Shown: in pieces, positions 1 through 27,524 of the stretch
Layout: each line of letters opens with the position of its first letter
How positions within the stretch are numbered: position 1 is the first letter of the stretch
Source of the DNA: Xanthomonas campestris pv. campestris str. ATCC 33913
GTDB lineage: Bacteria; Pseudomonadota; Gammaproteobacteria; Xanthomonadales; Xanthomonadaceae
Direction of reading: 5' to 3'
Length of the DNA: 32,000 nucleotides
NCBI RefSeq assembly: GCF_000007145.1
Contig: NC_003902.1
Coordinates: forward strand, 1,297,436-1,329,435
The notes under the pieces: model-generated
Told to the model about the DNA's origin: nothing
Seen by the model: only the letters and a program-made list of their open reading frames with translations
The model's database searches: none
Translations under genes and position numbers: made by a program

Positions 1-2251
1 CGCTGCCATGGATGGCAGCTTTTTGATTTTCGCCGGCACGGATGCCGGCATTAGGAAGCGTCTTGGGCAGGAACGGGGCCAGATGCGATTTGACTGCACA
101 CGGGCCCACGCCAGGGCCGCCGCCGCCATGTGGAATGCAGAAGGTCTTGTGCAGGTTGAGATGCGACACGTCCGAGCCCCACTTGCCGGGCTTGGCCACG
201 CCGACCAGGGCGTTCATGTTGGCGCCGTCGGTATACACCTGGCCGCCGTGCGCGTGCACCGCTTCGCAAATCGCCACCACGTCTTCTTCGAACACGCCGT
301 GCGTGGACGGGTAGGTGATCATCAGCGCGGCCAGGCGGTCGGAATATTTCTCGGCCTTGGCGCGAATGTCATCGACATCGACATTGCCGTTGGCATCGCA
401 CTTGGTCACCACCACGGTCATGCCGCACATCTGCGCGGAGGCCGGGTTGGTGCCGTGGGCGGATTCGGGAATCAGGCAGATGTCGCGGTGGGCTTCGTTG
501 CGCGAGCGGTGATAGGCGCGGATTGCCAGCAGGCCGGCGTATTCGCCCTGCGCGCCGGAATTGGGCTGCAGGCTCACCGCGTCGTAGCCGGTGCATTCGA
601 CCAGCATCGCTTCCAGTTCTTCGATCAGCTGCGCATAACCGGCCGACTGCTCGGGCGGTGCCAGCGGATGGATCGCGCCGAATTCCGGCCAGGTCACCGG
701 AATCATCTCGGCGGTGGCGTTGAGCTTCATCGTGCAGCTGCCCAGCGGGATCATGGTGCGATCCATGGCCAGGTCCTTGTCGGCCAGCGAGCGCATGTAG
801 CGCAGCAGTTCGTGTTCGCTGTGATGGGTGTTGAACACCGGGTGCTGCAGGAATGCGCTGGTGCGGCGCATGCCCTGCGGCAGCGCGTCGGCGGTGGCCG
901 CATCCAGCGCATCGATATCCGCCTGGGCACCGAACAGCTGCGCCAGTGCCACCACATCGGCGCGCGTGCTGGTTTCGTCCAGGCTGATGCCGACCGCTTC
1001 GCTATCGATCGCGCGCAGGTTGATGCCGGCCGCATGCGCCTTGGCGTGGATGGCATCGGCATCGATCGCCTTGACGTGCAGCGTGTCGAAGAAATGCTCG
1101 CCCACGGTGACGCCGGCGCTGCGCAATGCGGCCGCCAGGATCGCCGCCAGGCGATGGGTGCGGCGGGCAATGCGTGTGAGGCCCTCGGGGCCGTGGTAGA
1201 CCGCGTACATCGAGGCCATCACCGCCAGCAGCACCTGCGCGGTGCAGATGTTGGAGGTGGCCTTTTCGCGACGAATGTGTTGCTCACGCGTCTGCAGCGT
1301 GAGGCGATAGGCCGGGTTGCCGGCAGCATCGATCGACACCCCGATCAAGCGGCCCGGCATCGAGCGCTTGTAGGCATCGCGGCAGGCCATGAAGGCCGCA
1401 TGCGGGCCACCGAAGCCGAACGGCACGCCGAAGCGCTGCGAGTTGCCCACCACGATGTCCGCGCCCCATTCGCCCGGCGCGGCGATCAGCGTGAGCGCCA
1501 GCAGATCGGTGGCCACGGCGACCAGGCCGCCCTGCGCGTGCACGGCATCGGCCAACGCGGCGTGATCGCCGATGTGGCCGAAGCTGTCCGGGTACTGCAG
1601 CAGCACGCCGAAGCACTCGGCCTGCATGGCTTCGTCCGGCGTGCCCACACGCAGCACGATGCCCAGCGGCTCGGCGCGCGTGCGCAGCAGCTCCTGCGTC
1701 TGCGGGTGCACTGCGTCGTGCACGAAGAACGTATCGGACTTGGACTTGGCCGAGCGCTTGGCCAGCGTCATCGCTTCGGCTGCGGCGGTGGCTTCGTCCA
1801 GCAGCGAGGCATTGGCGATCTGCATGCCGGTGAGGTCGGCGCACATGGTCTGGAAGTTGATCAGCGCTTCCATGCGGCCCTGCGAAATCTCGGCCTGGTA
1901 GGGCGTGTAGGCGGTGTACCAGGCCGGGTTTTCCAGGATGTTGCGCAGGATCACCTTCGGCGTATGCGTGCCGTAGTACCCCTGGCCGATGAACGTGCGC
2001 TGCACCTGGTTCTTGCTGGCAATGGCGCGGATCCTGGCCAGCGCTTCTTCTTCGGTGATCGCATCGGGCAGCGCCAGCGCGGCCGGCGACTTGATGTTGG
2101 ACGGCACGATGGCGTCGGTCATCGCATCCAGCGAGTCGTGGCCGACAACGCCCAGCATCTGCGCGATTTCCGCGTCGTTGGGGCCGATGTGGCGTTCGAC
2201 GAACGCGCTGTGGTGTTCGAGGTCGCGCAGGGAAGACGGAGTCTGGGACAT
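1..2251 (-). CDS. gcvP: glycine dehydrogenase (decarboxylating), glycine cleavage P-protein; 3' end runs off the window (about 750 N-terminal codons present)
   Basis: Own translation of the minus strand from ATG 2251..2249 gives [33 protein letters not shown]...[48 protein letters not shown]...[22 protein letters not shown] (PLP-lysine motif). The frame stays open to base 1. It is absent from the ORF track, apparently because it has no in-window stop. A glycine riboswitch lies directly upstream. Confidence 0.95.
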
Positions 2252-2354
2252 GGCGGGCATCCGGGGCAGGGGGCATGCGAAAGGTCGGAAGCACCACGAC
2301 CGGCATGACGCGCATACGCGCACCACGACCTGCCGCACTGGCGGTCTTCCTCGC

Positions 2355-2540
2355 GCCCCTCTGTCCTTTTGCCTGAGAGTTTAAGAACGCGGCCTGGCCT
2401 GTGGCCTGCCTGCGTTCCGTGCCCCTTCGGCGCCGGAGTGAACCGGTCTCTCCAGAGTTGTGTTGAAGATGGTATCGGGCCTGAGCGATTACGGGCTGTT
2501 GCGCCTTCGGCAGCGGCAGTGCCGCTTCTCCCACCGTGTT
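2355..2540 (-). promoter_or_regulatory. tandem glycine riboswitch (two aptamers) in the gcvP leader
   Basis: Minus-strand reading. Aptamer 1: GGGAGAagcggcactgccgctGCCGAAGGCGCAAcagcccgtaatcgCTCAGGCccgatACC. Aptamer 2: CTCTGGAGAGaccggttcactccggcGCCGAAGGGGCAcgg...aaCTCTCAGGCAAAAGGACAG. Both match the conserved GGAGA / CCGAAGG(G/C)GCA / CTCAGGC..A.GAC cores of the glycine aptamer. A TATAAT hexamer (minus strand, 2554..2549) sits just upstream. Confidence 0.85.
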
Positions 2541-2734
2541 ACCTGCCGATTATAGCCTGCGCCCAAGCCGCCGGCGCGCCGCACCACGCTGCCGCGGCAG
2601 GGGCGCTGCGCTCGGGTTTGCTTAACCTTGCCGGGGTGAACACCTATCATCTGCGGCCCTGTGTGCATCCAGTCCCGCCGCCGACGCGGCCCCTGACGTG
2701 CACACTCCGCTGTACCCGCTTTCCGGATCCCGGC

Positions 2735-3988
2735 ATGACCCCGACCACGCCCTCCACCCGTCGCATGGCGCTGCTGCTCGCCGGCCTGGCGATGTTCGGC
2801 CCGTTTTCCATCGACACCATCTTCCCGGCGTTCTCCCAGCTCAGCCGCAGCCTGGCGGTGGACGAGGTGGCGATCCAGCAGACCATCAGCGTGTATCTGC
2901 TGGCCTACGGGCTGATGAGCATCGCGCACGGGCCGCTCTCCGACGCCTGGGGCCGCAAGCGGGTGATCCTGGGCGGGTTGGTGCTGTTCATCGCCGGCAC
3001 CATTGGCTGCGCGTTGTCGCGCGATCTGCCGACGCTGCTGGCCTTCCGCGCGCTGCAGGGCTTGTCGGCCGGCGTGGGCATGATCGTGGGGCGCGCGGTC
3101 ATCCGCGACCTGTTCCAGGGCCACGACGCGCAGCGCCTGATGAGCCAGGTGTCGATGATCTTCGGCATCGCCCCGGCGATCGCGCCGATCATCGGCGGCT
3201 GGATCCTGCTCAGCGGCGCCGGCTGGCCGCTGATCTTCTGGTTCCTGGCGGTGTTCGGGCTGGTGCTGCTGATCGCCACGGTGACCTGGCTGCCGGAAAC
3301 CCACCCGGTGGAGGCGCGCACGCCGCTGCAGCTGCGCCGCCTGCTGCATGACTACGTGCGGATCGGCTTCAACCCACGTTTCCAGCGCCTGGCCGCGGCC
3401 GGTGCGTTCAACTTCGCCGGCATCTTTTTGTACATCGCCTCGGCGCCGGTGCTGGTGATGCGCCACCTGCACCTGGGCGAGGGCGATTTCGCCTGGTTGT
3501 TCATTCCCACCATTGGCGGCATGACCCTGGGGTCGTTCCTGTCCGGGCGCATGGCCGGGCGGATGGATCCGGTGCGGCAGGTGCGCATCGGTTTCATCTA
3601 CTGCGGTGTGGCGGCGCTGGTCAACCTTGGCTATACGCTGGCGGTGGCGCAGATCAGCCTGCCGTGGGCGGTGCTGCCGATCTTCCTGGCCGGGCTGGGC
3701 ATGGCGCTGATCTTCCCGATCCTGGCGCTGGCGGTGCTGGACATGTACCCGCAGCAGCGCGGCCTGGCGTCCTCGCTGCAGGCCTTCACCCAGCTGATGA
3801 CCAATACCGTGGTGGCCGGGGTGCTGTCGCCGCTGCTGAGTGAACACCCGCGGCATCTGGCGTTCGGCATGACCGGCTTTTTCTTGCTGGGCTGGCTATT
3901 CTGGCGCTGGGAGCGCCGCAGCGGCCGCCGCTTGCGGCGCCGCCAGGCTGCCGAGGCACTGCCTCTGGAGCCGGCCGACCACCTTTGA
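2735..3988 (+). CDS. bcr: MFS transporter, Bcr/CflA drug-resistance efflux subfamily
   Basis: ORF 2369..3988. The membrane-protein part starts at in-frame ATG 2735 (MTPTTPSTRRMALLLAGLAMFGPFSIDTIFPAF...). It has about 12 hydrophobic helices and the MFS motif GPLSDAWGRKRV. The upstream 122 codons are Pro/Arg/Ala-rich and overlap the riboswitch and promoter region. Confidence 0.85.
   Translation: MTPTTPSTRRMALLLAGLAMFGPFSIDTIFPAFSQLSRSLAVDEVAIQQTISVYLLAYGLMSIAHGPLSDAWGRKRVILGGLVLFIAGTIGCALSRDLPTLLAFRALQGLSAGVGMIVGRAVIRDLFQGHDAQRLMSQVSMIFGIAPAIAPIIGGWILLSGAGWPLIFWFLAVFGLVLLIATVTWLPETHPVEARTPLQLRRLLHDYVRIGFNPRFQRLAAAGAFNFAGIFLYIASAPVLVMRHLHLGEGDFAWLFIPTIGGMTLGSFLSGRMAGRMDPVRQVRIGFIYCGVAALVNLGYTLAVAQISLPWAVLPIFLAGLGMALIFPILALAVLDMYPQQRGLASSLQAFTQLMTNTVVAGVLSPLLSEHPRHLAFGMTGFFLLGWLFWRWERRSGRRLRRRQAAEALPLEPADHL
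3668..3771. repeat. inverted-repeat arm 1 (104 bp, inside the MFS gene)
   Basis: Checked base by base: the reverse complement of 3668-3771 is identical to 4357-4460. It encodes ...LPIFLAGLGMALIFPILALAVLDMYPQQRGLAS of the transporter. Confidence 0.95.
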
Positions 3989-4004
3989 CCCCACAGGAGC
4001 CTGC

Positions 4005-4559
4005 ATGTCCACCGATTCCAAGCTGCGCCGCGATGCCCGCAAGCGGGCCACCGAGCGCGCGCGCAACCAGGCCGCTGCCAACCCCGCGCCGGTCTCGCCG
4101 ATCGAACCGCATGCCGAACTGCGCGACCAGCAACGCACGCTGCTGGCCGGCATCGTGCGCCGCGACGGCGAGTGGGTGCTGGGCATGGATGGCCGCATCG
4201 CCGGCGAAAGCACCAGCGCCGCGCAGGTGCTGGCCCTGATCATGCGAGCGGCCGAACTGCACGAACGCCAGGGCACCCCCGTGCGGCTGACCTATTCGGA
4301 CGCCCTCAAGGACGCCGCGCACGCCGAGGCCGCTGCGGACGGCATGGAATTCGAGCGACGCCAGGCCGCGCTGCTGCGGGTACATGTCCAGCACCGCCAG
4401 CGCCAGGATCGGGAAGATCAGCGCCATGCCCAGCCCGGCCAGGAAGATCGGCAGCACCGCTCCTACGACAGCCCAGCAACTGCCGAAGGGTCGCTACATC
4501 GCTGCCCTTGCGATCCAGCAAAGGCAGCGTCGCAGGCGTGGCCACGACGCTGCCACTGA
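4005..4559 (+). CDS. hypothetical protein (184 aa); the C-terminal third is chimeric with inverted-repeat arm 2
   Basis: AGGAG at 3995-3999 lies 5 nt before ATG 4005. The N-terminal 117 aa look protein-like (MSTDSKLRRDARKRATERARNQ...GEWVLGMDGRIAGESTSAAQVLALIMRAAELHERQGTPVRLTYSDALKD). Residues about 118-152 (QAALLRVHVQHRQRQDREDQRHAQPGQEDRQH) are the antisense reading of MFS helix-coding DNA. Confidence 0.5.
   Translation: MSTDSKLRRDARKRATERARNQAAANPAPVSPIEPHAELRDQQRTLLAGIVRRDGEWVLGMDGRIAGESTSAAQVLALIMRAAELHERQGTPVRLTYSDALKDAAHAEAAADGMEFERRQAALLRVHVQHRQRQDREDQRHAQPGQEDRQHRSYDSPATAEGSLHRCPCDPAKAASQAWPRRCH
4357..4460. repeat. inverted-repeat arm 2 (104 bp, perfect reverse complement of 3668-3771)
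   Basis: Identical to the reverse complement of arm 1. The spacer between arms is 585 bp (3772-4356). Confidence 0.95.
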
Positions 4560-4573
4560 ACCGGCTAACGCAG

Positions 4574-6505
4574 TCAACGCGCCTGCGACTGCCGCACCGA
4601 CTCCTGCTGCGTTGCCTGCTCCAATGCGGCAGCATCGCGCTCGGGCGACGGTCCCAATGCCTGCAAGCGCTGCAGGCTGGCTTCCACCGGCGCTTCCTGC
4701 GCCGCCTTGGCGTCGAAGCTGCCGCGCAGGTGCGCCGGTGAATCGAGCGCGCCCTGGACCACGAAGCCGCGGGCCGGGTCGTTCCCGAGCAGCACGTGGT
4801 CGACGCGCTGTAGCCCATGCTCACGCGCGGCCACCAGCGATCCCAGTGCCAGACGCTCGCTGTCCATGCCCGGCGTGGGGCCATGCGCGCCTTCCAGTCG
4901 CCCTACGGCGGCGGTGCATTGCTGCAGCAGCCCATGGTCCGGATGCGCAGGGTCGCGCGGATCAGGCACTGCCGCGGTTGCGGCCGCCGGGCGCGGTGCC
5001 ACATCGGCGTCGATGCGTTGCAGCCGGCCGTCGAACTGGCCGTCGGCGCCGTCTGCGATGCGTTGCAGGCGCTCGGCAAAGGCCGCAGGCTGCCCGCCCA
5101 CATTGCGCGCCAGCGCGATGGCGAATTGCTCGGTGTCGGATGCCTGGCCGTTGCCGACCAGTAGTGCCAACGGGCTCGCGCCGATCTTGTTGGCCGTGGC
5201 GGCGGTCTGGGTCTGCTGCAGCAACGCCTGCATCTGCTGCTCGTTGAACACCAGCGTGGTTTTCTGCCCGGCTTGAATTGCGCCTGTGCCCGCCATGTCG
5301 CCGCTGATCGCGCTATTGAGCGATTGCGCCATGGCTTTTTCTTCGCTGGCCTCGTTGCGGCCGCCCAGGCGTTGCATCAGCCCAGGGGTGGCAACGTCGC
5401 CGTCGATTTCGAAACGGTAGCTGCGCTCCTGCACGCGTTCGACATTGTTGCCGTCGTAGTGGCGCAGCACTGTCAGTGGCACGTTATCGCCGTATTTCAG
5501 CTGCTGCAGCACGGCGTAGTCGTCCTGGCCGGGTTCGCTGATGCGGATCTGGCTACCTTCATTGCGGGTGCCCCCCAGATCGGCGTCGAGCGGGCCCAGT
5601 TGCAACTGCATGCGCTGCTGCGAACTGAAACCGATCCGCTCCAGCGTCTGGATCTGATCCACGCCGGGCGTGCCGGGCGCAACCTCGCCCGTGCGCGCGA
5701 ACGCCGTCATGGCGTCGACGGCGCGTGGATCGGCCAGGTCGAACTGCGCGCTCTGCACACGTGAAGTGCCAAGGCGGTCGGTGCGGCCAACCAGGGCCTG
5801 CGCGGGGCCGGCCTTGAGTCCGATCGCATTGGCCGCTTCGATGGCGTCGTTGGGGCCGGTGGCCACGCGCACGTGGCGCTCGTCCACGCGTTCGATCAGA
5901 TAACTGCGGCCGCTGGCTTCGGTGATCTTGCTCTGCATCGCAACCTGTTGCAGGTCCGCCTTGACCTCGCGCTGTGCGAAGGCCTGGCTATCGAGCACCG
6001 CACGAGCGCCCACCGGCAAGCTCTCCGGTTGTAGCGGGTTCACCTGCGTGGCTGCGTCCAGTGATTGATCGGCGCCAGGCAGCGTCAGCGTGTAGCGCAT
6101 GCGCTGGCCGGCGGCCACGCCGGCTTCCAGGTTCAACGTGCCGCTGCCGAGTTTGGTCTGTCGGCTTTGCTGCAAGCCGGTCTGCGCGTCTGCTTCCAGG
6201 CTGAAGGTGGTGGTCTTTGCATCGGCATCGCTGACCACGCCCAGGCTCTGCGAGCTGGCGCTGCGCAGGCTGGTTTCGCCCAGCGGCTGCGTCGCACTGC
6301 CGCTGCTCTGCTGCGTGCTCTGCGTGTGCTTGACCGACTGTTCGCCGGGGTTGAGACCCAGGCTGCGGCCACCCGGCCCGTTGGCCGCGAATTCGGTGCC
6401 AGTGCTGCCGTAGGTTGGATCAAACGCGCCCTGCTGCGCGTCTGCAATGATCTGTGCATCGCGATCCGCATCGTGCGGACCCGGGCCAGTGGAGGCCTGG
6501 TTCAT
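4574..6505 (-). CDS. large hypothetical protein with an XVIPCD-like C-terminal domain; candidate X-T4SS-secreted effector (X-Tfe-like), N-terminal function unknown
   Basis: AAGGAG lies 7 nt upstream of ATG 6505. The C-terminal ~130 aa (RDPAHPDHGLLQQ...SERLALGSLVAAREHGLQRVDHVLLGNDPARGFVVQG...PVEASLQRLQ...QATQQESVRQSQ) align motif by motif with the C-terminus of the 27525..28625 protein. They also match my recollection of XVIPCD motifs (HP.H.L..Q, S..LA, G..R.D.V.L, F.VQG, P.E.S.Q, Gln-rich tail). There is no signal peptide. I do not recognise any family in the N-terminal ~480 aa. Confidence 0.6.
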   Translation of the reverse strand: MNQASTGPGPHDADRDAQIIADAQQGAFDPTYGSTGTEFAANGPGGRSLGLNPGEQSVKHTQSTQQSSGSATQPLGETSLRSASSQSLGVVSDADAKTTTFSLEADAQTGLQQSRQTKLGSGTLNLEAGVAAGQRMRYTLTLPGADQSLDAATQVNPLQPESLPVGARAVLDSQAFAQREVKADLQQVAMQSKITEASGRSYLIERVDERHVRVATGPNDAIEAANAIGLKAGPAQALVGRTDRLGTSRVQSAQFDLADPRAVDAMTAFARTGEVAPGTPGVDQIQTLERIGFSSQQRMQLQLGPLDADLGGTRNEGSQIRISEPGQDDYAVLQQLKYGDNVPLTVLRHYDGNNVERVQERSYRFEIDGDVATPGLMQRLGGRNEASEEKAMAQSLNSAISGDMAGTGAIQAGQKTTLVFNEQQMQALLQQTQTAATANKIGASPLALLVGNGQASDTEQFAIALARNVGGQPAAFAERLQRIADGADGQFDGRLQRIDADVAPRPAAATAAVPDPRDPAHPDHGLLQQCTAAVGRLEGAHGPTPGMDSERLALGSLVAAREHGLQRVDHVLLGNDPARGFVVQGALDSPAHLRGSFDAKAAQEAPVEASLQRLQALGPSPERDAAALEQATQQESVRQSQAR

Positions 6506-6634
6506 CGGATTGCTCCTTGCATGCTGCGCTGACGCAGCGGGGGCCGAAGTATATCGCCGAGGTTTTTCGCGATTATCAACAGGTCGTTATGCGGCTGCCG
6601 GGATCCGGCAACCGCATGACGTCACGCACGTGGA

Positions 6635-8653
6635 TCAGCGCGCGGAAGGCGCCGGCGTTGCCGGCGGCGTTGCAGTGGCCCCCTTGGCCTGCCACCCGCA
6701 CATCTGGCCCTGGTTCTGCTGTTTGAGCCATTCCTGCATCGGTGCGAAATATTCCAGCATCGGGCCGGCATCGAGCGTGTCCTTGCCGGTCACTTCCTTC
6801 AGCGTGGTCTGCCAGGGCTGGCTGGAGCCGCGTTGCAACATCGACCAGAATTTCTGGCCGGCTTCCTTGTTGCCGTAGAAGCTGCATTCGTACAGCGGCC
6901 CCTGGTGGCCGGCGGCATCGCACAGGCCCTTGTAGAACTGGAATTGCAGGATGTGCGCGAGAAAATAACGGGTGTAGGGCGTGTTGCCGGGCACGTGGTA
7001 TTTGGCGCCGGCATCGAAGAAGTCCTCGCCGCGTGGGCTCACCGGTGCCACGCCCTGGTAGGTGGCCTTCAACTCCCACCAGGCCTGGTTGTAGCGTTCC
7101 GGGGGAATCGAGCCGTCGAATACGCCCCAGCGCCAGCGGTCGATCATCAGCCCGAACGGCAGAAACGCCACCTTGCTCAGCGCCATGCGCATCTGCGAAT
7201 TGATCAATGCCTCGCGCCCGCTCTGCTGCTCGCCAACCATGCCGATCGACTGCAGGTACTTGGGGGTCATCGCCAGCACGATGGTGTCGCCGATGGCTTC
7301 GTGGAAGCCGTCGTTGGCGCCGTTCTGGAACAGCGGCGGCAACGGGTTGTAGGCCATGTCGTAATAGATGTGGCCAAGCTCATGGTAGATGGTGGTGAAG
7401 TCTTCTTCGGTGGGGCGGATGCACATCTTGGTGCGCACGTCCGGGCCGATGCCCGCGTTCGGCTCGCCACCCATGTTCATGTCCCACGCGCTGGCGTGGC
7501 AGACCACGTCGCGGTCCAGTGGCTTGATGAACTGCGAGCGTTGCCAATAGGTGTCCGGCAACTTCGGCATGCCCAGCGACGTGTAGAAATCCTGCGCGCG
7601 TTCGGTCATCTGCTGGGCAGTGCGCAGTTGCGCGTCGCGCTCGGCGAGGAAGCGTGCAGCTGCGCCGCCATCGCCACCGGTGTTGCGCGCCAGCACGGCG
7701 CTCAGGTTGCCCTGGTACTGTTTTTCCAGCGCCGAGGTGATGTCCAGGTCGCCCGCACCGGGATAGGGCTGCAGCAGATCCCACAGGTTGCTCCAGTCCT
7801 GCTGCCACATGTTGCCCATCAGGTGCGCGGGCAGCATGCCGCCGGCCACCTCGCCCTTGTCCTTGCCGTACTGCGTGTCCAGCTTGCCGCGCGCGTAGCA
7901 TTGCAGCTGGGTGTACAGCGGTTTGAGCTGTTCCCAAAGGCGGTCGGTTTCGCTGGCCAATTGCGCCGGCGGCATGTCGTAGCCGCTGCGCCACATCGCA
8001 CCGACATCGGCAAAGCCCATGCCGCGTGCACCGTCATTGGCGAGCTCGACAAAGCGCTGGTAGTCCTTGCGCATGGGTTGCGCGGTGGCGTGCCAGCCTT
8101 GCCAGGCTTGCAGTTGTTCGTCGTAGTCGCGGCTGCGTGCCAGCACTTGTTCGAGCTCGCCCAGCTGGCGGCAACGGCGTTGCTCGCCTTCACCGGTGCA
8201 GGCGCTGCCCGCGCCGTAGTCGCCTTCCATCTTCGCGGCGATACGCGTGAGTTCGGCCAGCTTGGTCGGGTCGCGCGGGGCGGGCAGGGCGCTCATCAGC
8301 TTGAGTAATTGCAGCGCACGCGCGCTGTCGGCGGACATCGGGGTGCCGGCGTACTGCTTGGATTGGTCGATCCAGCGATCCAGCTGGCTCAGCGCGCGCT
8401 CGTTGGCCTTGGCCGCCAGCAACTGCGAGTCGCCGTTGATGTAGGTCGACGACAGCCACTGCGCGGCAGTCATTTCCGGATACGCCGCCTTGTATTCGGC
8501 ACTGATGCGCGCCACGAACTGGTCGGCGCTTTCGCTGGGTGCGGTTTTGGTGGTGGCGGGCTTGGGCGTCGGCACCGCATCCTGGCGGCACGACGACAGC
8601 GACAACGTACCGGCGGCAACGGCGAGCGCCAGCAACAGCAGACGAGGATTCAC
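6635..8653 (-). CDS. peptidyl-dipeptidase A, M2 family (angiotensin-converting-enzyme homologue), lipoprotein
   Basis: GTG start at 8653 with AAGGA upstream. The signal peptide carries a lipobox (LSLSSC). The zinc site is HELGH ... HEAIGD. Length and overall pattern are typical of bacterial ACE-like M2 peptidases known from Xanthomonas. Confidence 0.9.
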   Translation of the reverse strand: MNPRLLLLALAVAAGTLSLSSCRQDAVPTPKPATTKTAPSESADQFVARISAEYKAAYPEMTAAQWLSSTYINGDSQLLAAKANERALSQLDRWIDQSKQYAGTPMSADSARALQLLKLMSALPAPRDPTKLAELTRIAAKMEGDYGAGSACTGEGEQRRCRQLGELEQVLARSRDYDEQLQAWQGWHATAQPMRKDYQRFVELANDGARGMGFADVGAMWRSGYDMPPAQLASETDRLWEQLKPLYTQLQCYARGKLDTQYGKDKGEVAGGMLPAHLMGNMWQQDWSNLWDLLQPYPGAGDLDITSALEKQYQGNLSAVLARNTGGDGGAAARFLAERDAQLRTAQQMTERAQDFYTSLGMPKLPDTYWQRSQFIKPLDRDVVCHASAWDMNMGGEPNAGIGPDVRTKMCIRPTEEDFTTIYHELGHIYYDMAYNPLPPLFQNGANDGFHEAIGDTIVLAMTPKYLQSIGMVGEQQSGREALINSQMRMALSKVAFLPFGLMIDRWRWGVFDGSIPPERYNQAWWELKATYQGVAPVSPRGEDFFDAGAKYHVPGNTPYTRYFLAHILQFQFYKGLCDAAGHQGPLYECSFYGNKEAGQKFWSMLQRGSSQPWQTTLKEVTGKDTLDAGPMLEYFAPMQEWLKQQNQGQMCGWQAKGATATPPATPAPSAR

Positions 8654-8711
8654 GGGTGGTCCTTGCGGTGAAGTCCGGCGAAGGCTAGAGCGCGCCGGGG
8701 TTCAGGGCAAG

Positions 8712-8739
8712 TAAAAGCGCCATGCGTGCTGCATGGCGC
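8712..8739 (-). terminator. rho-independent terminator after eptA
   Basis: Perfect 9-bp stem gcgccatgc / gcatggcgc (8717-8725 and 8731-8739) with a 5-nt loop. On the minus strand it is followed by TTTTACTT. Confidence 0.6.
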
Positions 8740-8771
8740 CGGTGAATCGGCAAGCGTACGCGGCGCCGGGC

Positions 8772-10427
8772 TCAGCCGGTGCAGCTGGCGAACACGTCGC
8801 GCTCGCGGGCATAGGCACTGGTCTTGACCTGCAGCAGGCCGAGCACCGACGGAAACAGCGCGTCCTGGTCGGTGTACTGGCCGGCGCGATGGCGCAGGCA
8901 GGCTTCGTCCAGGCCACGGTCGCGGGCGAACTCCGGCGAGAACCACATCACCATCGGCACGTGGGTCTGCTCCTTGGGCGCGATCGCATACGGCACGCCA
9001 TGCAGATACAGGCCTTTTTCGCCGAGCGATTCGCCGTGGTCGGAGAGGTAGATCATCGCGGTGTCGTAGTCCGGCATTCCGCGCAGCGCGTGGATGGCCT
9101 GGGCGAGGAAGTGATCGGTGTAGGTGATGGAATTGTCGTAGGCATTGACGATCTGCTGGCGGCTGCAGCTGCCCAGGTCGGCGGTCTTGCACACCGGTTT
9201 GAAGCGTTCGAACGCAGCCGGGTAGCGTTCGAAATAGCTCGGCCCGTGGCTGCCCAACTGGTGCAGCACCACCACGCGATCGCCTGGCCTGGCACGCACC
9301 TGCGCGGCCAGATCGCCGAGCAGGATCTCGTCCATGCAGCGCCCATCGGCGCACAGGCCCGGGGTGGTGGCGTTGTCCAGTTGTTCGATCTGCAAGCCGT
9401 CGCATACGCCCTTGCAGCCGGACTGGTTGTCGCGCCACAGCGTGGAGATGCCGGCGTGCTCGAGCACATGCAGCAGCGACTGATGGCCGCGGATCATGTC
9501 TTCGTTGTAATCGCGCCGGCCGAACGGCGAGAACATGCACGGCACCGAGACCTCGGTACTGGTGCCGCACGAATGCATGTCCGGGAAGTTGATCACCCCG
9601 GCCTGCGCCAGCTCCGGCGTGGTCTGGCGCGCGTAGCCGCTGAGGCCCCAGTTCTGCGCACGTGCGGTTTCGCCCAGCACCACCAGCAACAGGCGCGGGC
9701 GGCTGCCGGCCGCGCGCGGCGTGGCCATCGCATCATGCTCGACCGGCTGCTTGGGCGCATGCTTGATCGGCGAATCGGATTTGAAGTTCTGCTTGAGTGC
9801 CACCAGGTAGTTGATCGGCGTGGCCAGATAGCGCACTTCGCGGTGGTTACGCATCAACGCGGAGATGTCCTGGAACGAGAGCAGCGCGCCCAGCATTCCG
9901 CCCACTGCCATCACGGCCATAAAACCGACCCGCATCACCCAGGTCTTGCCCAAGCTGCGGGTCCCTACGCGCACGCGCCACAGCAACGTGGCCGGGATGG
10001 CGAAGTAGCACAGCAACGGCAGGATCAACCCTGGCGTCAGCAACTCGCGCGATTCCTTGTGATCGGTATGCAGCACGTTGCGCAGCATGTCCGCGTCCAG
10101 ATAGACGTTGTAGCTGTCCATGTAGTGCGCGGCCAAGGCGGTGGTGAGCAGCAGCACGGTCAGCAGCGGCTTGGCATTCCAGCGCCACACCAGCAGCCCC
10201 AGCACCAGCGCATTGACCGCCACCAGCAAGGCCATCAGCGAGGCGGCGAAGCCCAGGCTGCCCGGGTGGGTCGCCATGGCGGTGCGCCAGAACACCTGGT
10301 TGCAGACCAGGGCGAAGAACAGGCTGCTCAGCAACACCAGCATCTCGGTAGAGACAGTGGGGCGCGTGCTCCAGCTCAGCGCGTGCAGGCGCGTGCGCCA
10401 ACGCGGATGCGGCAGCAAGGTGCTCAT
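8772..10427 (-). CDS. eptA: phosphoethanolamine--lipid A transferase (EptA/PmrC, MCR-like family)
   Basis: Five N-terminal TM helices precede a sulfatase-fold domain. Motifs: VLGETARAQNWGLSGY (catalytic Thr context), multiple Cys pairs, LSDHGESLGEKGLYLHG. Confidence 0.9.
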   Translation of the reverse strand: MSTLLPHPRWRTRLHALSWSTRPTVSTEMLVLLSSLFFALVCNQVFWRTAMATHPGSLGFAASLMALLVAVNALVLGLLVWRWNAKPLLTVLLLTTALAAHYMDSYNVYLDADMLRNVLHTDHKESRELLTPGLILPLLCYFAIPATLLWRVRVGTRSLGKTWVMRVGFMAVMAVGGMLGALLSFQDISALMRNHREVRYLATPINYLVALKQNFKSDSPIKHAPKQPVEHDAMATPRAAGSRPRLLLVVLGETARAQNWGLSGYARQTTPELAQAGVINFPDMHSCGTSTEVSVPCMFSPFGRRDYNEDMIRGHQSLLHVLEHAGISTLWRDNQSGCKGVCDGLQIEQLDNATTPGLCADGRCMDEILLGDLAAQVRARPGDRVVVLHQLGSHGPSYFERYPAAFERFKPVCKTADLGSCSRQQIVNAYDNSITYTDHFLAQAIHALRGMPDYDTAMIYLSDHGESLGEKGLYLHGVPYAIAPKEQTHVPMVMWFSPEFARDRGLDEACLRHRAGQYTDQDALFPSVLGLLQVKTSAYARERDVFASCTG

Positions 10428-11194
10428 TGCTCACCTCCCGTCAGCACCAGCATGCGCAGCGGTTGCCGCGGCGGCGCCAGCAGCAGCCAATACAGACCCA
10501 GCGCGGTCAACCAGCACACGCCCAGCGACCACAGGTCGTGCGAGAGGAAATGCGCGCCGCGCAACTGCTGCGATATGCCGAACACCGCCCCTGCGGCCAG
10601 CCCGGTCAACAGCGCCGGCCAGCGCCAGGCCGGGCGCAGCGCCAGTGCGCAGAAGTACAGCGCCACCCATGCATAGCCGGCGCTGGCATGGCCGGCCGGA
10701 AAGCAACCGGAGGCATGCAGGCCGTGCCGCGAGGCGAACAAGCCGATCAACGGATGTGTGCCGCCATAGCGGCTCAGATCCCACGGGCAGTCCATTGCCG
10801 TCCACGACTTCAGCAGCGACACCAGCGTGGTGGACAGCGCCACCGACGCCGCCAGGTAGGTCAGCGGCCAACGCAAGGCGCGTGCGCCCGGACGCGCCCG
10901 CGACCATGCCAACACCGCCATGCCCAGCACCACCACGGCTGCAACCGTGCTCAGCCACTTGCCGCCGCGGTGCACCAGCTGGCTGGTGAACCACTGTTCC
11001 TTCAACAGCCAGTGCCCACCTTCCAGCCGATACAGCGCGTCGGCCACCCACTGGTCGCCGCCGCCGAGCATCAGCAGCGCGCTGATCGCCAGCAACGCCG
11101 CCAGCGGCAGCCACAGGTGCGCCAGCAGAAAGCGGGTTTGCCAGCTGGTGGCGGTGCGTGTCAGCGCAGGCGCATGAAGGGGGAGCGTTGTCAT
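10424..11194 (-). CDS. PAP2-family membrane phosphatase
   Basis: Polytopic membrane protein with acid-phosphatase motifs (PAGHAS; LRGAHFLSHD). Its stop overlaps the eptA start in ATGA (10427..10424). Confidence 0.8.
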   Translation of the reverse strand: MTTLPLHAPALTRTATSWQTRFLLAHLWLPLAALLAISALLMLGGGDQWVADALYRLEGGHWLLKEQWFTSQLVHRGGKWLSTVAAVVVLGMAVLAWSRARPGARALRWPLTYLAASVALSTTLVSLLKSWTAMDCPWDLSRYGGTHPLIGLFASRHGLHASGCFPAGHASAGYAWVALYFCALALRPAWRWPALLTGLAAGAVFGISQQLRGAHFLSHDLWSLGVCWLTALGLYWLLLAPPRQPLRMLVLTGGEQ

Positions 11195-11294
11195 CGAAAG
11201 ATCCGGACCATTGCAATGGCGGGCATCTTCGAAAGCGGCGTGTCGGAAAGCGGTCGGACCCGGGTTGGACCGGCGTTAAGCGCACTGTGTTGGT

Positions 11295-13061
11295 TCAGTC
11301 TGTGTCGGTGTCGGCATCTGCGCCTTCCGCGGCGGAGCCTGCAGCGTTGCACCCCGCGTGCCATGCCGTGCCCGGCACCAATTGCCACTGGTTGCGATTC
11401 GATTCGCCGATCTCCACCACCTGCGCGCGCGCCACGCAGGCCGGTACCGCCTGCTTGAGCACGAACAACCAGCGCCGCTGCGGCGCCTGCGCCAACCACG
11501 GGCCGGCCTGCGCCCACTGCGCCTGCCAACTCGCCTTGAAGCCGAAGTCGGTGACCGGTCGGTCGGCCTGCAACAGGTTCTGTTCCTTCCACGCCAGCAT
11601 GCCCAGCTCGGCGTGCGGGCCGATGCGCTCGCCCACGCGCTGCATCAGCGCCGCAGATGAACTATAGGGGTCCAATGCCGGCATCACGCCCAGGCCGGTG
11701 ACCGTCCACAACGCCGCGGTGGCGGCGACCAGCGCGCTGCCGGCGCGCCTGCCGCGTGCCCAGGCCACCAGTCCGAGCGCGACAAGCCCCAGACCTATCA
11801 GCCACACGCTCATGGTCTGCAGCGATGCCAACGCGATGCCACGTTGCAGCGCGCTGCGTTCGGCCCAGTGCAGGTGCAGGCCGATACCGCCGCCCAGTGC
11901 CAGCGCCGCCACGCCCAGCAACAGCACATAGCCAAGCAGCAGCCGCTGCACGCCACGGCGTCGCAACAGGCCAGGCAGCAGCGGGGCGGCGGCGATGCAC
12001 AGCGCCGGCAGCATCGGGAAGATGTAGACCTCGCGCTTGCCCGGGCTGGCACTGAAGAACACCAGCACCAGCAGGCTCCACGCCAGCAGCAACAGCAGGC
12101 GTGGGTCGCCGCGGCGCAGCCGGCGCCACCACGCCGGCACCAGCCACGGCAGCAGCAGGCAGCCCGGCAACCACAGCGTGGCGATCACCTGCAGGTAGTA
12201 CCAGAACGGTTTGACGTGATGCCAAGCGTGCGCATAACGCGTGCCGGTTTGCTTGAACAACAACTCGTGCGCGTAGGCATGCAACGCCGGGTCGGGGCTG
12301 TGCAGCAGGGCGATGCCCAGCGGCCCCAGCCACAGCGCGGTGCCGGCCACAAACGCCGGCAGCACCAGCAGCCAGCTGCGCCCGGCCAGTGCCCGCGCCG
12401 GCAGCACGCTGGGGTGACGGCGTGGCAGCGCCATCCACGGCAGCAGCACCAGCAGCGGCAGAAACCCCACGCCCTTGGTCACCGTGCCCACGCCAGCAGC
12501 ACAGAGCCCGATCACCCAGGCGCGCCAGTCCGGCCCGCGCAGCAGATGACGCAGTAACCCCCACAGCGACAGCGTGGTCAGCGCCACCAGCACCATGTCG
12601 ATCTGCGCACGCTTGGCCATCAGCCCGAACTGCAGCACGGTGAACAGCGACAGCACCGCGTAACGCGCGACACGTCGGTTCCAGAGCCGCCGGCTCAGGT
12701 CCCAGGTCAGCCACAGCGTGAGCAATGCGGCCAGCAACGATGGCAGCAGGAAGGCGATCGGCCAGTGCGGCACAAGTTCGTAGCTGGCCGCCTGCAACCA
12801 CATGAACACCGGCGGTTTTTCCGCATACAACTCGCTGCCCCGGTGCGGGAGCAACCACTGCCCGGTCTCCACCATGGTGCGCGCGGCCAGCACGAAGCGT
12901 GGTTCGTCCGGCGGGTTGGGTTGGCGCAGGCCCAGCCCGGCCAGCAGCGCAATGACGATCAACGCCAGCGCGGCAGCCAGGGCGGGTTTGCGCGACAGCG
13001 CGGCGGAAACGGCAGACGGCACACGGGCGCCTTGGTCGAAACGGTGCAGGACGATGCCCAT
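11295..13061 (-). CDS. GT39/ArnT-like glycosyltransferase (undecaprenyl-phosphate-sugar dependent, lipid A/core modification family)
   Basis: ORF 11295..13208. The start is taken at ATG 13061 (MGIVLHRF...), because the longer form would overlap the divergent regulator's promoter and start. The protein has more than 10 TM helices and an N-terminal loop PPDEPRFVLAARTM (a DExR-type motif as in ArnT/PMT enzymes). Confidence 0.7.
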   Translation of the reverse strand: MGIVLHRFDQGARVPSAVSAALSRKPALAAALALIVIALLAGLGLRQPNPPDEPRFVLAARTMVETGQWLLPHRGSELYAEKPPVFMWLQAASYELVPHWPIAFLLPSLLAALLTLWLTWDLSRRLWNRRVARYAVLSLFTVLQFGLMAKRAQIDMVLVALTTLSLWGLLRHLLRGPDWRAWVIGLCAAGVGTVTKGVGFLPLLVLLPWMALPRRHPSVLPARALAGRSWLLVLPAFVAGTALWLGPLGIALLHSPDPALHAYAHELLFKQTGTRYAHAWHHVKPFWYYLQVIATLWLPGCLLLPWLVPAWWRRLRRGDPRLLLLLAWSLLVLVFFSASPGKREVYIFPMLPALCIAAAPLLPGLLRRRGVQRLLLGYVLLLGVAALALGGGIGLHLHWAERSALQRGIALASLQTMSVWLIGLGLVALGLVAWARGRRAGSALVAATAALWTVTGLGVMPALDPYSSSAALMQRVGERIGPHAELGMLAWKEQNLLQADRPVTDFGFKASWQAQWAQAGPWLAQAPQRRWLFVLKQAVPACVARAQVVEIGESNRNQWQLVPGTAWHAGCNAAGSAAEGADADTDTD

Positions 13062-13164
13062 GCGCGTGTCAGAAGGATGTCGGAATGCACCCGATCGCCG
13101 CCGCCGCCGTGGCTCGGCTAGGATGCGCACACTTGTCCGTGCCGCGGACGCCCCGGAGACCGCC

Positions 13165-13884
13165 ATGCGCCTGCTGGTCATCGAAGACAACCGCAACATG
13201 GTCGCCAACCTGTTCGACTATTTCGAAGCGCGCGGGCATACCCTGGACGCGGCGCCCGATGGCATCACCGGCTTGCATCTGGCCACCACCCAGCACTACG
13301 ACGCGCTGGTGCTGGACTGGATGATGCCGCGCATGGACGGGCCGGAAGTGCTGCGCCGGCTGCGCGAGCAGCACCAGTCCGAGCTGCCGGTGATCATGCT
13401 CACCGCGCGCGACGAACTGCCCGACAAGATCGCCGGGTTCCGCGCCGGCGCCGACGACTATCTGACCAAACCCTTCGCCCTGCCCGAGCTCGAAGTGCGT
13501 CTGGAAGCGCTGCTGGCACGCGCGCAGGGGCGCCGCCGCGGCAAGCTGCTGCAGGTGGCCGACCTGCGATTGGACCTGGCCACGCTGGACGCCACCCGCG
13601 CCGGCCAGGCGCTGCATTTGTACCCGGCCTGCCGCAAGTTGCTGGAGATCCTGATGCAGGCCAGCCCCGCCGTGGTCACCCGCCAGCGTCTGGAACAGGC
13701 GCTATGGGGCGACGATCCGCCCGATGGCGACATGCTGCGCTCCCACATCTACGAACTGCGCCGCAGCGTGGATGGCCCGTTCGCGCAAAAGCTCATCCAC
13801 ACCTTGCCGCGGCTGGGCTACCGGGTGGCCGCGCTGGAAGCCGCCGATGACGCCGCCACTGCCATCGAGTGCACCGATGGCTAA
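13165..13884 (+). CDS. OmpR/PhoB-family response regulator
   Basis: MRLLVIEDN...LVLDWMMPRMDG...LTKPF forms the receiver domain and there is a winged-helix C-terminus (LRSHIYELRRSV...LGYRV). ATG 13165 is in frame within ORF 12802..13884. Confidence 0.9.
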   Translation: MRLLVIEDNRNMVANLFDYFEARGHTLDAAPDGITGLHLATTQHYDALVLDWMMPRMDGPEVLRRLREQHQSELPVIMLTARDELPDKIAGFRAGADDYLTKPFALPELEVRLEALLARAQGRRRGKLLQVADLRLDLATLDATRAGQALHLYPACRKLLEILMQASPAVVTRQRLEQALWGDDPPDGDMLRSHIYELRRSVDGPFAQKLIHTLPRLGYRVAALEAADDAATAIECTDG

Positions 13885-15160
13885 GCATCGCCCGCTGGGC
13901 CGGCGCGTGCTGGTCTGGCTGTTCGGCTACACCTTCCTGATGGTGCTGGCGGTGTTCGGCACCGCGCAGTACCTGCACGAACGCGCCGAGCATGGCGTGT
14001 GGCGCTCGCTGCTCAATTCGGAACTGGACAGCATCCTGGACCGCAGCGCGCAGGATCCGGGCTATCGCTGGCAGGATTCGGACACCTTGCGGTTGTTTCG
14101 CGTGGACGGCAGCGCGCAGGTGCCGCCGGCGCTGCGCAGCTTGCATCCCGGCCTGCACGACGACCTGGAGATCGCCGGCCGCCAGAGCGCGGTGATGGTG
14201 CGCGACACCACGCATGCCGGCCGCCTGGCGCTGGTGCTGGACATCACCGACTTCGAAGCGCTGGAACACTTCCTCACCCGCTGGATGCTGGCCGCCGGCA
14301 TCGCCTTGATCACCATCACCGTGCTGATGGGCACCTATGCGATGGCGCGGCTGGTGCGTCCGCTGGTGGATCTTGCGCGCGATATCGGCGCATTGCGACC
14401 GGAGCGGCGCGACCAGCGTATCGCGGTGGGCCCGCAAGGCAGCACCGAGCTGTACGTGATCGCCGATGCCCTCAATGACTATCTCGAACGCAACGGCCAG
14501 TTCGTCGAGCGCGAGCGCGCCTTCATCGACAGCGCCAGCCACGAACTGCGCACGCCGATCGCGGTGATCGGCAACGCCGCCGAGCTGGCGCTGGAGCAAC
14601 CGGACACGCCGGCCGTGGTGCGCCATCAACTGCAACGCATCGCGCAGACCAGCGGCGCGGTGGAACAGCTGATCACCTTGTTGCTGGTGCTGGCCAAGGA
14701 CCCGGGCCGGCTGGTGCGCAGCAGCGACACGCTGCGCCTGGATCAATTGCTGCCGGAGATCGTGGCCGACCATGCGCACCTGTGCGCCGACAAGGACCTG
14801 CAACTGCAGGTCGCACCGCTGCCACCGTGCAGCCTGGTGGCGCCGGTGGCGATCGTGCAGACGGCCATCGGCAACCTGTTGCGCAACGCGATCGAGAACA
14901 GCGATCGCGGCATCATCCATATCGCGCTGGCGTCACCGGGCGTGGTGCAGATCACCGACCCCGGCCACGGCATGACCCCGGAAGAAATCAGTGCGATCTA
15001 TGCGCGGCTGGCACGCGGCAACGCGCGTCAGGGCAACGGCATCGGCCTGGAATTGATCGGTCGCCTCTGCGAGCACCTGGGCTGGCACCTGCGCCTGGAT
15101 TCCAGTGCGGGGCAGGGCACGGTGGCCACGCTGGATCTCAGTGGCGCGACCCTGACCTAG
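13877..15160 (+). CDS. sensor histidine kinase (HisKA/HATPase_c), partner of the 13165 regulator
   Basis: The start ATG 13877 overlaps the regulator's stop (ATGGCTAA). There are two TM helices, an H-box SHELRTPIA and a G-box GNGIGLELI. Confidence 0.85.
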   Translation: MAKHRPLGRRVLVWLFGYTFLMVLAVFGTAQYLHERAEHGVWRSLLNSELDSILDRSAQDPGYRWQDSDTLRLFRVDGSAQVPPALRSLHPGLHDDLEIAGRQSAVMVRDTTHAGRLALVLDITDFEALEHFLTRWMLAAGIALITITVLMGTYAMARLVRPLVDLARDIGALRPERRDQRIAVGPQGSTELYVIADALNDYLERNGQFVERERAFIDSASHELRTPIAVIGNAAELALEQPDTPAVVRHQLQRIAQTSGAVEQLITLLLVLAKDPGRLVRSSDTLRLDQLLPEIVADHAHLCADKDLQLQVAPLPPCSLVAPVAIVQTAIGNLLRNAIENSDRGIIHIALASPGVVQITDPGHGMTPEEISAIYARLARGNARQGNGIGLELIGRLCEHLGWHLRLDSSAGQGTVATLDLSGATLT

Positions 15161-15193
15161 CGCACACCGCCGCGTTCAAACGCGGCACACCCA

Positions 15194-15685
15194 TTACACC
15201 GGCAACAGGCCGCGCGCAAGCAGCCAGCTGCGCGCATTCTCCGCATCCTGCTCGAACCAGGCGCGGGTCGATCCCAGCCGGTAGGTGTAGCCCCAGCTGT
15301 CCATGTCGGCCATCAGGCGCGCGCTGCCCACGCCGGGCAACTGCGCCGCCAGCAGGATCTGCAGATAACAGGTGGCGTCTTCTTCATCCACCGAATCGGT
15401 GGCATCGGTATGCACGGCGGCGCGCTTGTCCGGCGGCAGCACGATCAGGTGCCCGGCCTCGTGCAGCATCGAATGCACCGGCGTGTCGTCGCGCACATAC
15501 ACATCGCAACCGATGATGCCCGCTTCCGGCTCCCCCCAGAAACTGCCGGGAATCGGCGCATCCGCGTCCACATGCTGCAGACGCAATCCGTACCGGGCCA
15601 GCAGGGCGGCAGGCGCGTCCAGGCCGATATCGCCCACGCACAACACGGCATCGGCGGCAGGCAGGGAAGAGGGGGAGGTGCTCAC
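15194..15685 (-). CDS. hypothetical protein with an HExxH motif (HEAGH)
   Basis: ORF 15194..15763. I prefer the GTG start at 15685 because the minE terminator hairpin occupies 15747-15774, inside the longer form. The motif context is SMLHEAGHLIV. I do not recognise a family. Confidence 0.45.
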   Translation of the reverse strand: MSTSPSSLPAADAVLCVGDIGLDAPAALLARYGLRLQHVDADAPIPGSFWGEPEAGIIGCDVYVRDDTPVHSMLHEAGHLIVLPPDKRAAVHTDATDSVDEEDATCYLQILLAAQLPGVGSARLMADMDSWGYTYRLGSTRAWFEQDAENARSWLLARGLLPV

Positions 15686-15737
15686 GCGCAGGGCTCGCGG
15701 TAGATGCAGGCCGCCGCAGGGCGCGGAGGCGGGTGGA

Positions 15738-15774
15738 CCACAACAACACGGCACCGTGCGCACACGGTGCCGTG
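15738..15774 (-). terminator. rho-independent terminator after minE
   Basis: Perfect 12-bp stem cacggcaccgtg / cacggtgccgtg (15747-15758 and 15763-15774) with a 4-nt loop. On the minus strand it is followed by TTGTTGTGG. Confidence 0.6.
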
Positions 15775-15778
15775 CAGC

Positions 15779-16036
15779 TTACTTGTCGCCGTCTTCCGGC
15801 AGGGCGACGGTGATGTCGAGCACATCGTGCTCGCCATCCTTGACCAGATCCACCCGTACCGCATCGGCATCGATGTTGACGTACTTCTTGATCACTTCCA
15901 GCAGTTCGCGCTGCATCAGCGGCAGATAATCCGGCCCACCGCGATGGTTACGTTCCTGCGCGATGATGATCTGCAAACGGTTCTTGGCCGTCTCGGCGGT
16001 GTTCTTCTTGCTCTTGAGAAAATCGAGCAGGCCCAT
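15779..16036 (-). CDS. minE: cell division topological specificity factor MinE
   Basis: [29 protein letters not shown]...; 85 aa, immediately downstream of minD. Confidence 0.95.
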
Positions 16037-16038
16037 GC

Positions 16039-27259: not shown

Positions 27260-27524
27260 ATAACGTAGTTCTTGCGGGGCCTTGTGGGCATCGGCTTGAC
27301 CGTTGCCCACGATTTTCAAGACTGCCTTGCTTTCAGCTGGCGAGATTGGCATGCAGCCAACGTGCAGCAATCTCGAAACATTGCTTCGTGAACCATGGTG
27401 GCTACACCCGCATTACATCCGTTGCGGGTGAGACCAAACCACTGTCAGACAGTGATCTGATAGGCATCCGTCTGCTCCATCGAAGGCGTAGGACGCAGGG
27501 GGCATGTAAGTCGAACTGCAAGTT

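Follow-up and report, generated by a model that had tools for sequence, protein, structure and literature searches.

An orphan XVIPCD protein of Xanthomonas campestris pv. campestris with a conserved N-terminal domain: a probable type IV secretion substrate lacking an adjacent immunity gene

A 643-residue protein encoded in a 32,000-nucleotide stretch of the Xanthomonas campestris pv. campestris (Xcc) ATCC 33913 chromosome (NC_003902.1, positions 1,297,436 to 1,329,435; hereafter, the window) is probably an effector-type substrate (X-Tfe) of the Xanthomonadales-type bactericidal type IV secretion system (X-T4SS). It combines a C-terminal XVIPCD module with a cargo domain of about 480 residues. 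Its gene, referred to below as the effector gene, is a separable single gene with no dedicated partner in the lineages examined. The reading that we favour, to which we give an even chance of being right, is that of a VirD4-recruited effector whose non-enzymatic cargo acts on the envelope of the target cell and is harmless in the producer. The secretion and any toxicity of the protein are predictions from its sequence. Coordinates are given in Table 1.

The XVIPCD is the module by which VirD4 recognizes substrates for secretion. In the effector, Pfam PF20410 (X-Tfes_XVIPCD) is matched over the full model (positions 1-101) with an E-value of 3.6e-24 and 85.7 bits, for a Pfam cut-off of 24.9 bits, so that the similarity suspected in the original prediction is borne out by a profile search. 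A profile built from 16 orthologs matches the PDB entries 9p3h, 7r6s (TfcB), and 7mu9 (XAC2609) in the XVIPCD region only, and the Smlt3024-family model of NCBIfam likewise matches only the C-terminal part of the protein (E 2.2e-20). Two consensus motifs, GLxRIDHV and FAVQGxxDPAHxRAHV, have been quoted for the XVIPCD (PMC10432156). Both are found in the effector, as GLQRVDHV (residues 564-571) and FVVQGALDSPAHLRGSF (residues 581-597), and they are invariant or nearly so among the 16 orthologs. The tail that follows is modestly rich in glutamine; a Gln-rich tail has been described as part of the XVIPCD (PMC6536674). As had also been noticed, the C-terminal module resembles that of a second protein of the window, encoded at 27525-28625 (BLASTP, 31% over 105 amino acids, E 2e-8), which is itself a PF20410 member (E 1.6e-26). 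There are no vir genes in the 32-kb window, and the scattering of X-Tfe genes away from the vir locus, invoked in the original prediction, agrees with published descriptions, which list Xcc 8004 among the genomes having an X-T4SS (PMC6536674).

The second XVIPCD protein, 366 amino acids long and encoded on the minus strand, belongs to a canonical effector/immunity pair located in a low-GC island (27500-29300, 48-54% vs. about 66%). Its gene is preceded by an overlapping gene for a 204-residue lipoprotein (28607-29221, minus strand), which has a signal peptide with an LAAC motif. The N-terminus of this 366-residue protein also has no Pfam match.

Residues 1-516 of the effector have no match in Pfam, NCBIfam, PHROGs, PADLOC, or the sequences of the PDB. 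Hence, the N-terminus had rightly been called unassignable insofar as no library names it, but it corresponds to one conserved domain. Indeed, an exhaustive phmmer search with these residues retrieves 232 cluster representatives at E ≤ 1e-3, 135 of them at E ≤ 1e-10, and the similarity extends over approximately residues 25-505. Members are found in Stenotrophomonas indicatrix (P0042, 34% identity), Xanthomonas translucens, X. tesorieronis, Dyella, Luteimonas, Marilutibacter, Lysobacter, and a metagenome-assembled genome of a Burkholderiaceae. A profile search of the protein database with the diverse alignment returned the same Xanthomonas orthologs only. Since a FDPTY...NP..G.VK motif (residues 28-59) is kept in distant homologs, the first 100 residues are part of the domain. 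They had been described as rich in Ser, Thr, Gln, and Gly; they do not form a loose linker, and residues 11-93 are modelled with block-mean predicted local distance difference test (pLDDT) values of 85-97.

The architectures of the relatives suggest a link to the peptidoglycan. A Pfam scan of 142 representatives found LysM in 27, an XVIPCD in 13, and PG_binding_1 in four; the other families were variants of LysM and PG-binding domains, together with a TP_methylase match in one member. The only recurrent fusion partners of the domain are thus peptidoglycan-binding modules and the XVIPCD. Besides the domain followed by the XVIPCD, the arrangements include domain, PG_binding_1, and XVIPCD (P0029 and P0169), PG_binding_1 domains beside the cargo domain with no Pfam XVIPCD match (P0147), LysM followed by the cargo domain, and LysM, cargo domain, and XVIPCD (P0028). 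In some relatives, the domain is at the C-terminus, after long unannotated extensions. In X. chitinilytica (L037, 3006-6806), a protein of 1266 amino acids has about 660 unannotated N-terminal residues, then the cargo domain, then the XVIPCD. Two loci (L009, 2912-6542; L018, 4869-8772) carry tandem paralogs with LysM and the cargo domain side by side. The first of these is labelled as a scaffold of the cyanobacterium Tolypothrix but may be a contaminant contig, given the similarity of its neighbours to Lysobacterales loci.

AlphaFold2 modelling of residues 1-516 was unusable with 16 close orthologs (pLDDT 43.5) and gave a confident model with an alignment of 57 diverse homologs (pLDDT 92.8, predicted template modelling score 0.89). 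The model contains an N-terminal helix (12-25), five long β-hairpins (57-69/77-93, 98-119/122-143, 168-185/188-206, 211-232/235-256, and 282-303/306-323) with strands of 13-22 residues, a helix at 260-272 between the fourth and fifth hairpins, shorter strands after the fifth, and a helical subdomain at 385-486. The structural check proposed in the original prediction therefore yields a reliable model but no fold relative in the PDB or BFVD: Foldseek found only weak matches in these two databases, with template modelling (TM) scores of 0.1-0.34 and root mean square deviations of 15-25 Å. The top matches are all outer-membrane β-barrels (FecA, the EspP translocator, BamA, SusC). In the model, this resemblance reads as the local geometry of a long antiparallel meander and not as homology. 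An integral outer-membrane barrel or autotransporter was rejected on the TM scores, the lack of a signal peptide, the lack of tryptophan, and the mild character of the strand faces, the hydrophobic ones having mean Kyte-Doolittle values of 0.6-1.8.

Conservation within the domain has no enzyme-like pattern. In a MAFFT alignment of 143 sequences, almost all the positions conserved at 70% or more are Gly, Pro, or hydrophobic residues, and no His, Cys, Ser, or Glu reaches this level. D256 (93%) is the sole acidic residue of the effector that does, N156 and R213 reaching 71%. A conserved NPxxPxxxPxG loop occupies residues 156-166. In the 57-sequence set, E356, R361, and Y363 are conserved at 90% or more. 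No catalytic domain or residues of a peptidoglycan hydrolase of the GH19, SLT, lysozyme-like, M23, or amidase type were found in residues 1-516. Because the conserved set is composed of Gly, Pro, and hydrophobic residues, the alignment favours an action by binding or by a structural role over an enzyme.

The gene itself has the marks of a functional gene. The ORF list and direct reading confirm the predicted length, the good Shine-Dalgarno sequence, and the lack of a signal peptide: the protein starts MNQASTGPGPHDADRDAQ, and no hydrophobic signal sequence is seen at its N-terminus. It contains neither Cys nor Trp. No sigma-70 consensus was found in the 129-nt upstream gap. The original prediction had considered that a PIP-box promoter would point to another secretion route. 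On the minus strand between 6506 and 6800, there is no match to TTCGB-N15-TTCGB even when one mismatch is allowed, and matches over the whole window are at chance level. A type III secretion route or control by HrpX was therefore rejected, no PIP box being present within 300 nt upstream. Xcc 8004 (CP000050.1, 3740735-3742666) encodes an identical protein, as do many other Xcc assemblies; the index of the assembly collection lists it in 172 blocks. Across Xanthomonas, there are orthologs of 628-648 amino acids that are 63-71% identical, and none of them bears a name other than "XVIPCD domain-containing protein". Compared with the X. axonopodis and X. arboricola orthologs, the ratio of nonsynonymous to synonymous substitution rates (dN/dS) is 0.25-0.33 for the whole gene, about 0.28-0.30 for the cargo domain, and 0.05-0.30 for the XVIPCD. 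The dN is about 0.2 vs. 0.04-0.07 in three neighbouring genes. Effectors commonly evolve faster than the genes that surround them. These values indicate a functional gene under purifying selection that evolves faster than its surroundings.

No adjacent cognate immunity gene, which is usually located upstream and co-transcribed in X-Tfe/X-Tfi pairs (X-Tfi, immunity protein of an X-Tfe), accompanies the effector gene, which is flanked by an M2 peptidase gene upstream and by a convergent 133-codon gene downstream. In Xcc, X. axonopodis pv. poinsettiicola, and X. arboricola, the gene order is EptA, M2 peptidase, effector, 133-residue ORF (convergent), major facilitator superfamily (MFS) transporter, and gcvP. 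The gaps beside the effector gene, 129-132 nt upstream and 118-690 nt downstream in these three species, are too short for another gene. In Stenotrophomonas, the order is gcvP, MFS, small ORF, and M2 peptidase, with merely 125 nt at the position of the effector gene, and the M2 peptidase adjoins the small ORF without the effector in Stenotrophomonas and X. phaseoli, both genes being reduced to remnants in X. oryzae. The effector gene is also absent from the X. phaseoli and X. oryzae loci, where tblastn finds no remnant. Since the block of MFS gene, small ORF, and M2 peptidase persists without the effector gene, the latter is separable and has no dedicated partner. The distant, XVIPCD-bearing effector homologs of S. 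indicatrix and Xanthomonas sp. NCPPB 1128 are found in unrelated contexts, without a small co-oriented neighbour. Genes for proteins with LysM and the cargo domain in Luteimonas, Lysobacter, and relatives (33 loci, found with a 6-sequence alignment of non-Xanthomonas homologs) lie between putative ahcY and metK genes or a putative S9 peptidase gene. Their neighbours (AhcY, MetK, S9 peptidase, acyltransferase, etc.), assigned to families by reading their sequences and not by library search, were rejected as partners and reflect ordinary synteny. The search for a conserved partner across Xanthomonas that the original prediction had proposed thus found none in the lineages examined.

The M2 peptidase upstream, correctly recognized in the original prediction, starts MNPRLLLLALAVAAGTLSLSSC, in which a signal peptide with a lipobox, LSLSSC, can be seen by eye. 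The earlier statement that no lipoprotein is adjacent must therefore be amended, as this co-oriented neighbour has a lipobox, but it holds in the sense that there is no cognate immunity gene: the M2 peptidase was rejected for this role because the block that contains it exists without the effector. It belongs to a conserved block with the genes for EptA, PAP2, a PMT_2-family protein (Pfam PF13231), and a two-component system. In the X. phaseoli clade (L045, L047, and L048; 5368-7538), insertion sequences with rve/HTH_Tnp_1 transposases lie between the small ORF and EptA, the M2 peptidase gene is missing, and the small ORF is shortened to 120 residues. The M2 peptidase and EptA genes of X. oryzae (L044) are in fragments.

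The convergent small ORF had been put forward as an immunity candidate. A neighbour in this orientation does exist, but the gene is 133 codons long and its version in the window is chimeric. Past about codon 117, the 184-codon ORF at 4005..4559 enters an inverted copy of part of the MFS gene, which replaces the reference stretch. Compared with strain 8004, positions 1-4356 of the window are 100% identical and positions 4458-16505 are 99.98% identical. The inverted copy stands in place of 622 nt present in 8004 and in four further Xcc strains; in the reference sequence, these comprise three palindromic repeats resembling repetitive extragenic palindromes (REP) and the last 16 codons of the 133-residue ORF. 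Either a template-switch rearrangement specific to the strain or an artefact of assembly or editing would account for it. In the same interval of Xcc 8004 (L001, 12045-12600), between the effector gene and the small ORF, the three REP-like copies are about 240 nt apart and are built on GTAGGAGCGCGCTTGCGCGCG…CGCGCGCAAGCGCGCTCCTAC. The corresponding spacers of X. arboricola and X. axonopodis have 118 and 271 nt, respectively. The small ORF is represented by 558 clusters of 70-98% identity across Xanthomonas and Stenotrophomonas, has a dN/dS of 0.07-0.22, adjoins the MFS gene in genomes without the effector, and is absent from every locus with a distant effector homolog. It behaves like a housekeeping gene and was rejected as the immunity gene, being moreover truncated in the window.

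In the mechanism that we favour, the XVIPCD would dock onto the all-α domain of the coupling protein VirD4, and the X-T4SS would pass the Cys-free effector into a neighbouring Gram-negative cell. There, the β-rich domain would act non-catalytically on the envelope, near the peptidoglycan. It could bind or sequester an envelope component, or disturb the membrane via its long amphipathic hairpins. From the cytoplasm of the producer, the effector would be unable to reach the envelope compartment and would not be toxic in cis. The X-Tfis of X. citri have been reported to prevent cis-intoxication and to be dispensable when sister cells attack (PMC10933484). On this model, an effector that is not toxic in cis would therefore need no immunity gene. 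The original prediction had offered a non-periplasmic target as another explanation; this is, if anything, disfavoured, because the cargo domain is repeatedly fused to LysM and PG_binding_1.

Several observations weigh against this mechanism. Chitin is a ligand of LysM besides peptidoglycan, and some LysM proteins are cytoplasmic. The fusions are guilt by association, they cover only about 22% of the representatives, and the effector of the window has itself neither LysM nor PG_binding_1. About 90% of the relatives of the cargo domain have no XVIPCD. The Luteimonas version is syntenic and core-like, and toxin genes do not usually behave in this way. Membrane insertion of the hairpins is speculative, because the TM scores do not exceed 0.34, the strand faces are mildly hydrophobic, and Trp is lacking. 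The missing conserved catalytic residues in the 143-sequence alignment leave room for an unusual enzyme. Finally, the vir locus is described as fragmented in both Xcc 8004 and ATCC 33913 (PMC6536674), and in X. euvesicatoria an XVIPCD together with VirD4 binding was insufficient for the T4SS-dependent secretion of two proteins (PMC10432156).

The best-surviving alternative, which we nevertheless consider unlikely, is that the protein is an X-T4SS substrate without being an antibacterial toxin, either directed against eukaryotes such as fungi or amoebae or serving as an accessory for engaging or crossing the cell wall of the target. This would explain the missing immunity gene, and it is consistent with a cargo lacking a catalytic signature, with the affinity of LysM for chitin, and with the core-like behaviour of the Luteimonas LysM versions. 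To our knowledge, no accessory secreted factor has been described for any X-T4SS, which counts against the accessory version. As for eukaryotic targets, one X-T4SS has been reported to deliver the effector LtdD into fungi, and LtdD was not toxic to E. coli (PMC13600162). However, LtdD is an unrelated HNH nuclease, and a reading of the effector as an LtdD-like antifungal nuclease was rejected on this ground. In addition, the PG_binding_1 fusions indicate bacterial murein rather than chitin, and the rate at which the effector evolves, about threefold that of its neighbours, is typical of effectors.

It appears improbable that the protein degrades the cell wall as an enzyme from a new family, with its immunity encoded elsewhere or taken over by another protein. 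In favour of this reading, LysM and PG_binding_1 are found alongside GH19, SLT, and lysozyme-like domains in other X-Tfes, and D256 is strongly conserved, as are E356, R361, and Y363 in the 57-sequence set. In contrast, there is no match to a hydrolase family by sequence or by fold, the larger alignment keeps a single acidic position, and for the periplasm-acting hydrolase X-Tfes examined to date, a lipoprotein X-Tfi is encoded next to the effector (PMC6536674).

We also give little credence to a bolder proposal, in which the cargo domain would be a new fold defining a widespread class of non-enzymatic, peptidoglycan-associated envelope effectors in Lysobacterales and Burkholderiales. Its hairpins would rearrange in the target periplasm into a membrane-perturbing or pore-like assembly or into a conduit aiding other effectors. 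Such a protein would be active only once delivered and would need no immunity gene.

Very improbable, lastly, is an inactive passenger, kept by drift or for a cytoplasmic role and left unexported in X. campestris by the fragmented vir locus or by an insufficient XVIPCD: that fragmentation, the X. euvesicatoria result, truncated or frameshifted relatives (P0020, P0022-P0025, and an X. cassavae fragment), and the missing gene at the X. oryzae and X. phaseoli loci would fit, but the gene is kept at full length in many species, its dN/dS is low in both parts, and its sequence is identical in very many Xcc assemblies.

The envelope-acting effector that we favour has several known counterparts. X-Tfes with N-termini of unknown function have been described in X. 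citri and S. maltophilia (Smlt3024, Smlt0113, Smlt0332, Smlt0500/0502/0505; PMC6759196, PMC6536674). Like the present protein, they carry the two motifs in a C-terminal XVIPCD of some 100-120 residues, are encoded away from the vir locus, and lack both a recognized N-terminal domain and a signal peptide. However, the S. maltophilia genes are described as members of small operons in which they follow a conserved hypothetical gene, interpreted as the immunity gene, whereas the effector gene of the window has none, and by sequence its cargo domain has no relation to Smlt3024, only the C-termini matching. A VirD4 two-hybrid assay was negative for Smlt0113, with false negatives being possible according to its authors (PMC11253643). 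A link between the effector and the Smlt0113/XAC1164-XAC1165 family is no more than a lead: a homolog exists in S. indicatrix (P0042), but orthology to X. citri XAC1164/XAC1165, suspected from genome position, found no support, the X. phaseoli-clade locus being devoid of the effector gene.

XAC2609 (GH19, PG_binding_1, and XVIPCD, with the lipoprotein X-Tfi XAC2610) and TfcB (PDB 7r6s) also have the XVIPCD in common with the effector, and the layout of XAC2609, cargo followed by PG_binding_1 and XVIPCD, is mirrored in the relatives P0029 and P0169. What sets the effector apart from these two proteins is the lack of a glycoside hydrolase or peptidase domain, of conserved catalytic residues, and of a lipoprotein immunity gene. 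The "atypical T4Es" Le1637 and XAC2247 (PMC10989847) are effector homologs without an XVIPCD, like the proteins with LysM and the cargo domain of Luteimonas, Lysobacter, and Marilutibacter. They have a different cargo and adjacent detoxifying partners, whereas the LysM-containing genes lie without a partner amid housekeeping genes (ahcY, metK). Finally, the cargo model shares with outer-membrane β-barrels (the EspP and NalP translocators, BamA, TonB-dependent receptors) a long antiparallel up-and-down β-meander, but it differs from them in having neither a signal peptide nor an aromatic girdle.

What was already known of this protein is that NCBI names it by its XVIPCD. The definition of the domain, its family and fusions, a confident model, and the orphan status of the gene are new. 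A review of X-T4SSs had already stated that many X-Tfes have N-termini without identifiable domains (PMC6536674). Such unannotated N-termini are an acknowledged reservoir of unknown antibacterial activities, and the present analysis offers bench groups a domain boundary (about 25-505), a high-confidence model, and a family of about 230 representatives with informative fusions. An effector without an immunity gene is a direct natural test of the claim that X-Tfis prevent cis-intoxication, as an effector unable to harm its producer should need none. Should the protein prove toxic from the periplasm alone, the X-T4SS arsenal would gain a non-enzymatic mechanism; should it prove harmless, non-toxin cargo would have to be counted among XVIPCD proteins.

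Table 1. Position of the effector gene, its parts, and its neighbours in the window
Feature	Position	Strand	Basis and remarks
XVIPCD protein (effector) gene, complete	4574..6505	-	Stop codon 4574-4576, ATG 6503-6505; ORF list, 643 aa
Shine-Dalgarno sequence AAGGAG	6513..6518	-	7 nt before the effector ATG; read from the sequence
Intergenic region, 129 nt, M2 peptidase stop to effector start	6506..6634	-	Sequence reading, motif scans
Cargo domain, residues ~25-505	4991..6433	-	phmmer homologs, AlphaFold2 model, conservation
XVIPCD, residues 517-616	4658..4957	-	Pfam PF20410, NCBIfam, PDB profile matches
C-terminal tail, residues 617-643, …QATQQESVRQSQAR	4577..4657	-	Sequence; modestly Gln-rich
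M2 (ACE-like) peptidase gene, co-oriented, upstream	6635..8653	-	Pfam PF01401, E 3.5e-201; 672 aa
Small ORF, authentic codons (1 to ~117) for the conserved hypothetical protein (133 aa) encoded after the MFS gene	4005..4356	+	Strain comparison
Perfect inverted copy, 104 nt, of 3668-3771 (within the MFS gene)	4357..4460	.	Repeat search, blastn vs. five Xcc strains

Two further repeats were seen in the window. A 222-nt unit (74 codons, in frame) is duplicated in tandem with 99% identity at 25205-25652, inside a Band_7/SPFH gene; in L049, from a closely related Xcc strain, the unit is present once and the Band_7/SPFH product has 289 residues. A 151-nt tandem repeat of 2.5 copies (20156-20529) runs from the 3' end of a response-regulator gene, of the GerE/LuxR type according to Pfam in the related strain, into the downstream sequence. 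The repeat is natural, since the related strain has it too, with two ORFs of 47 residues called there.

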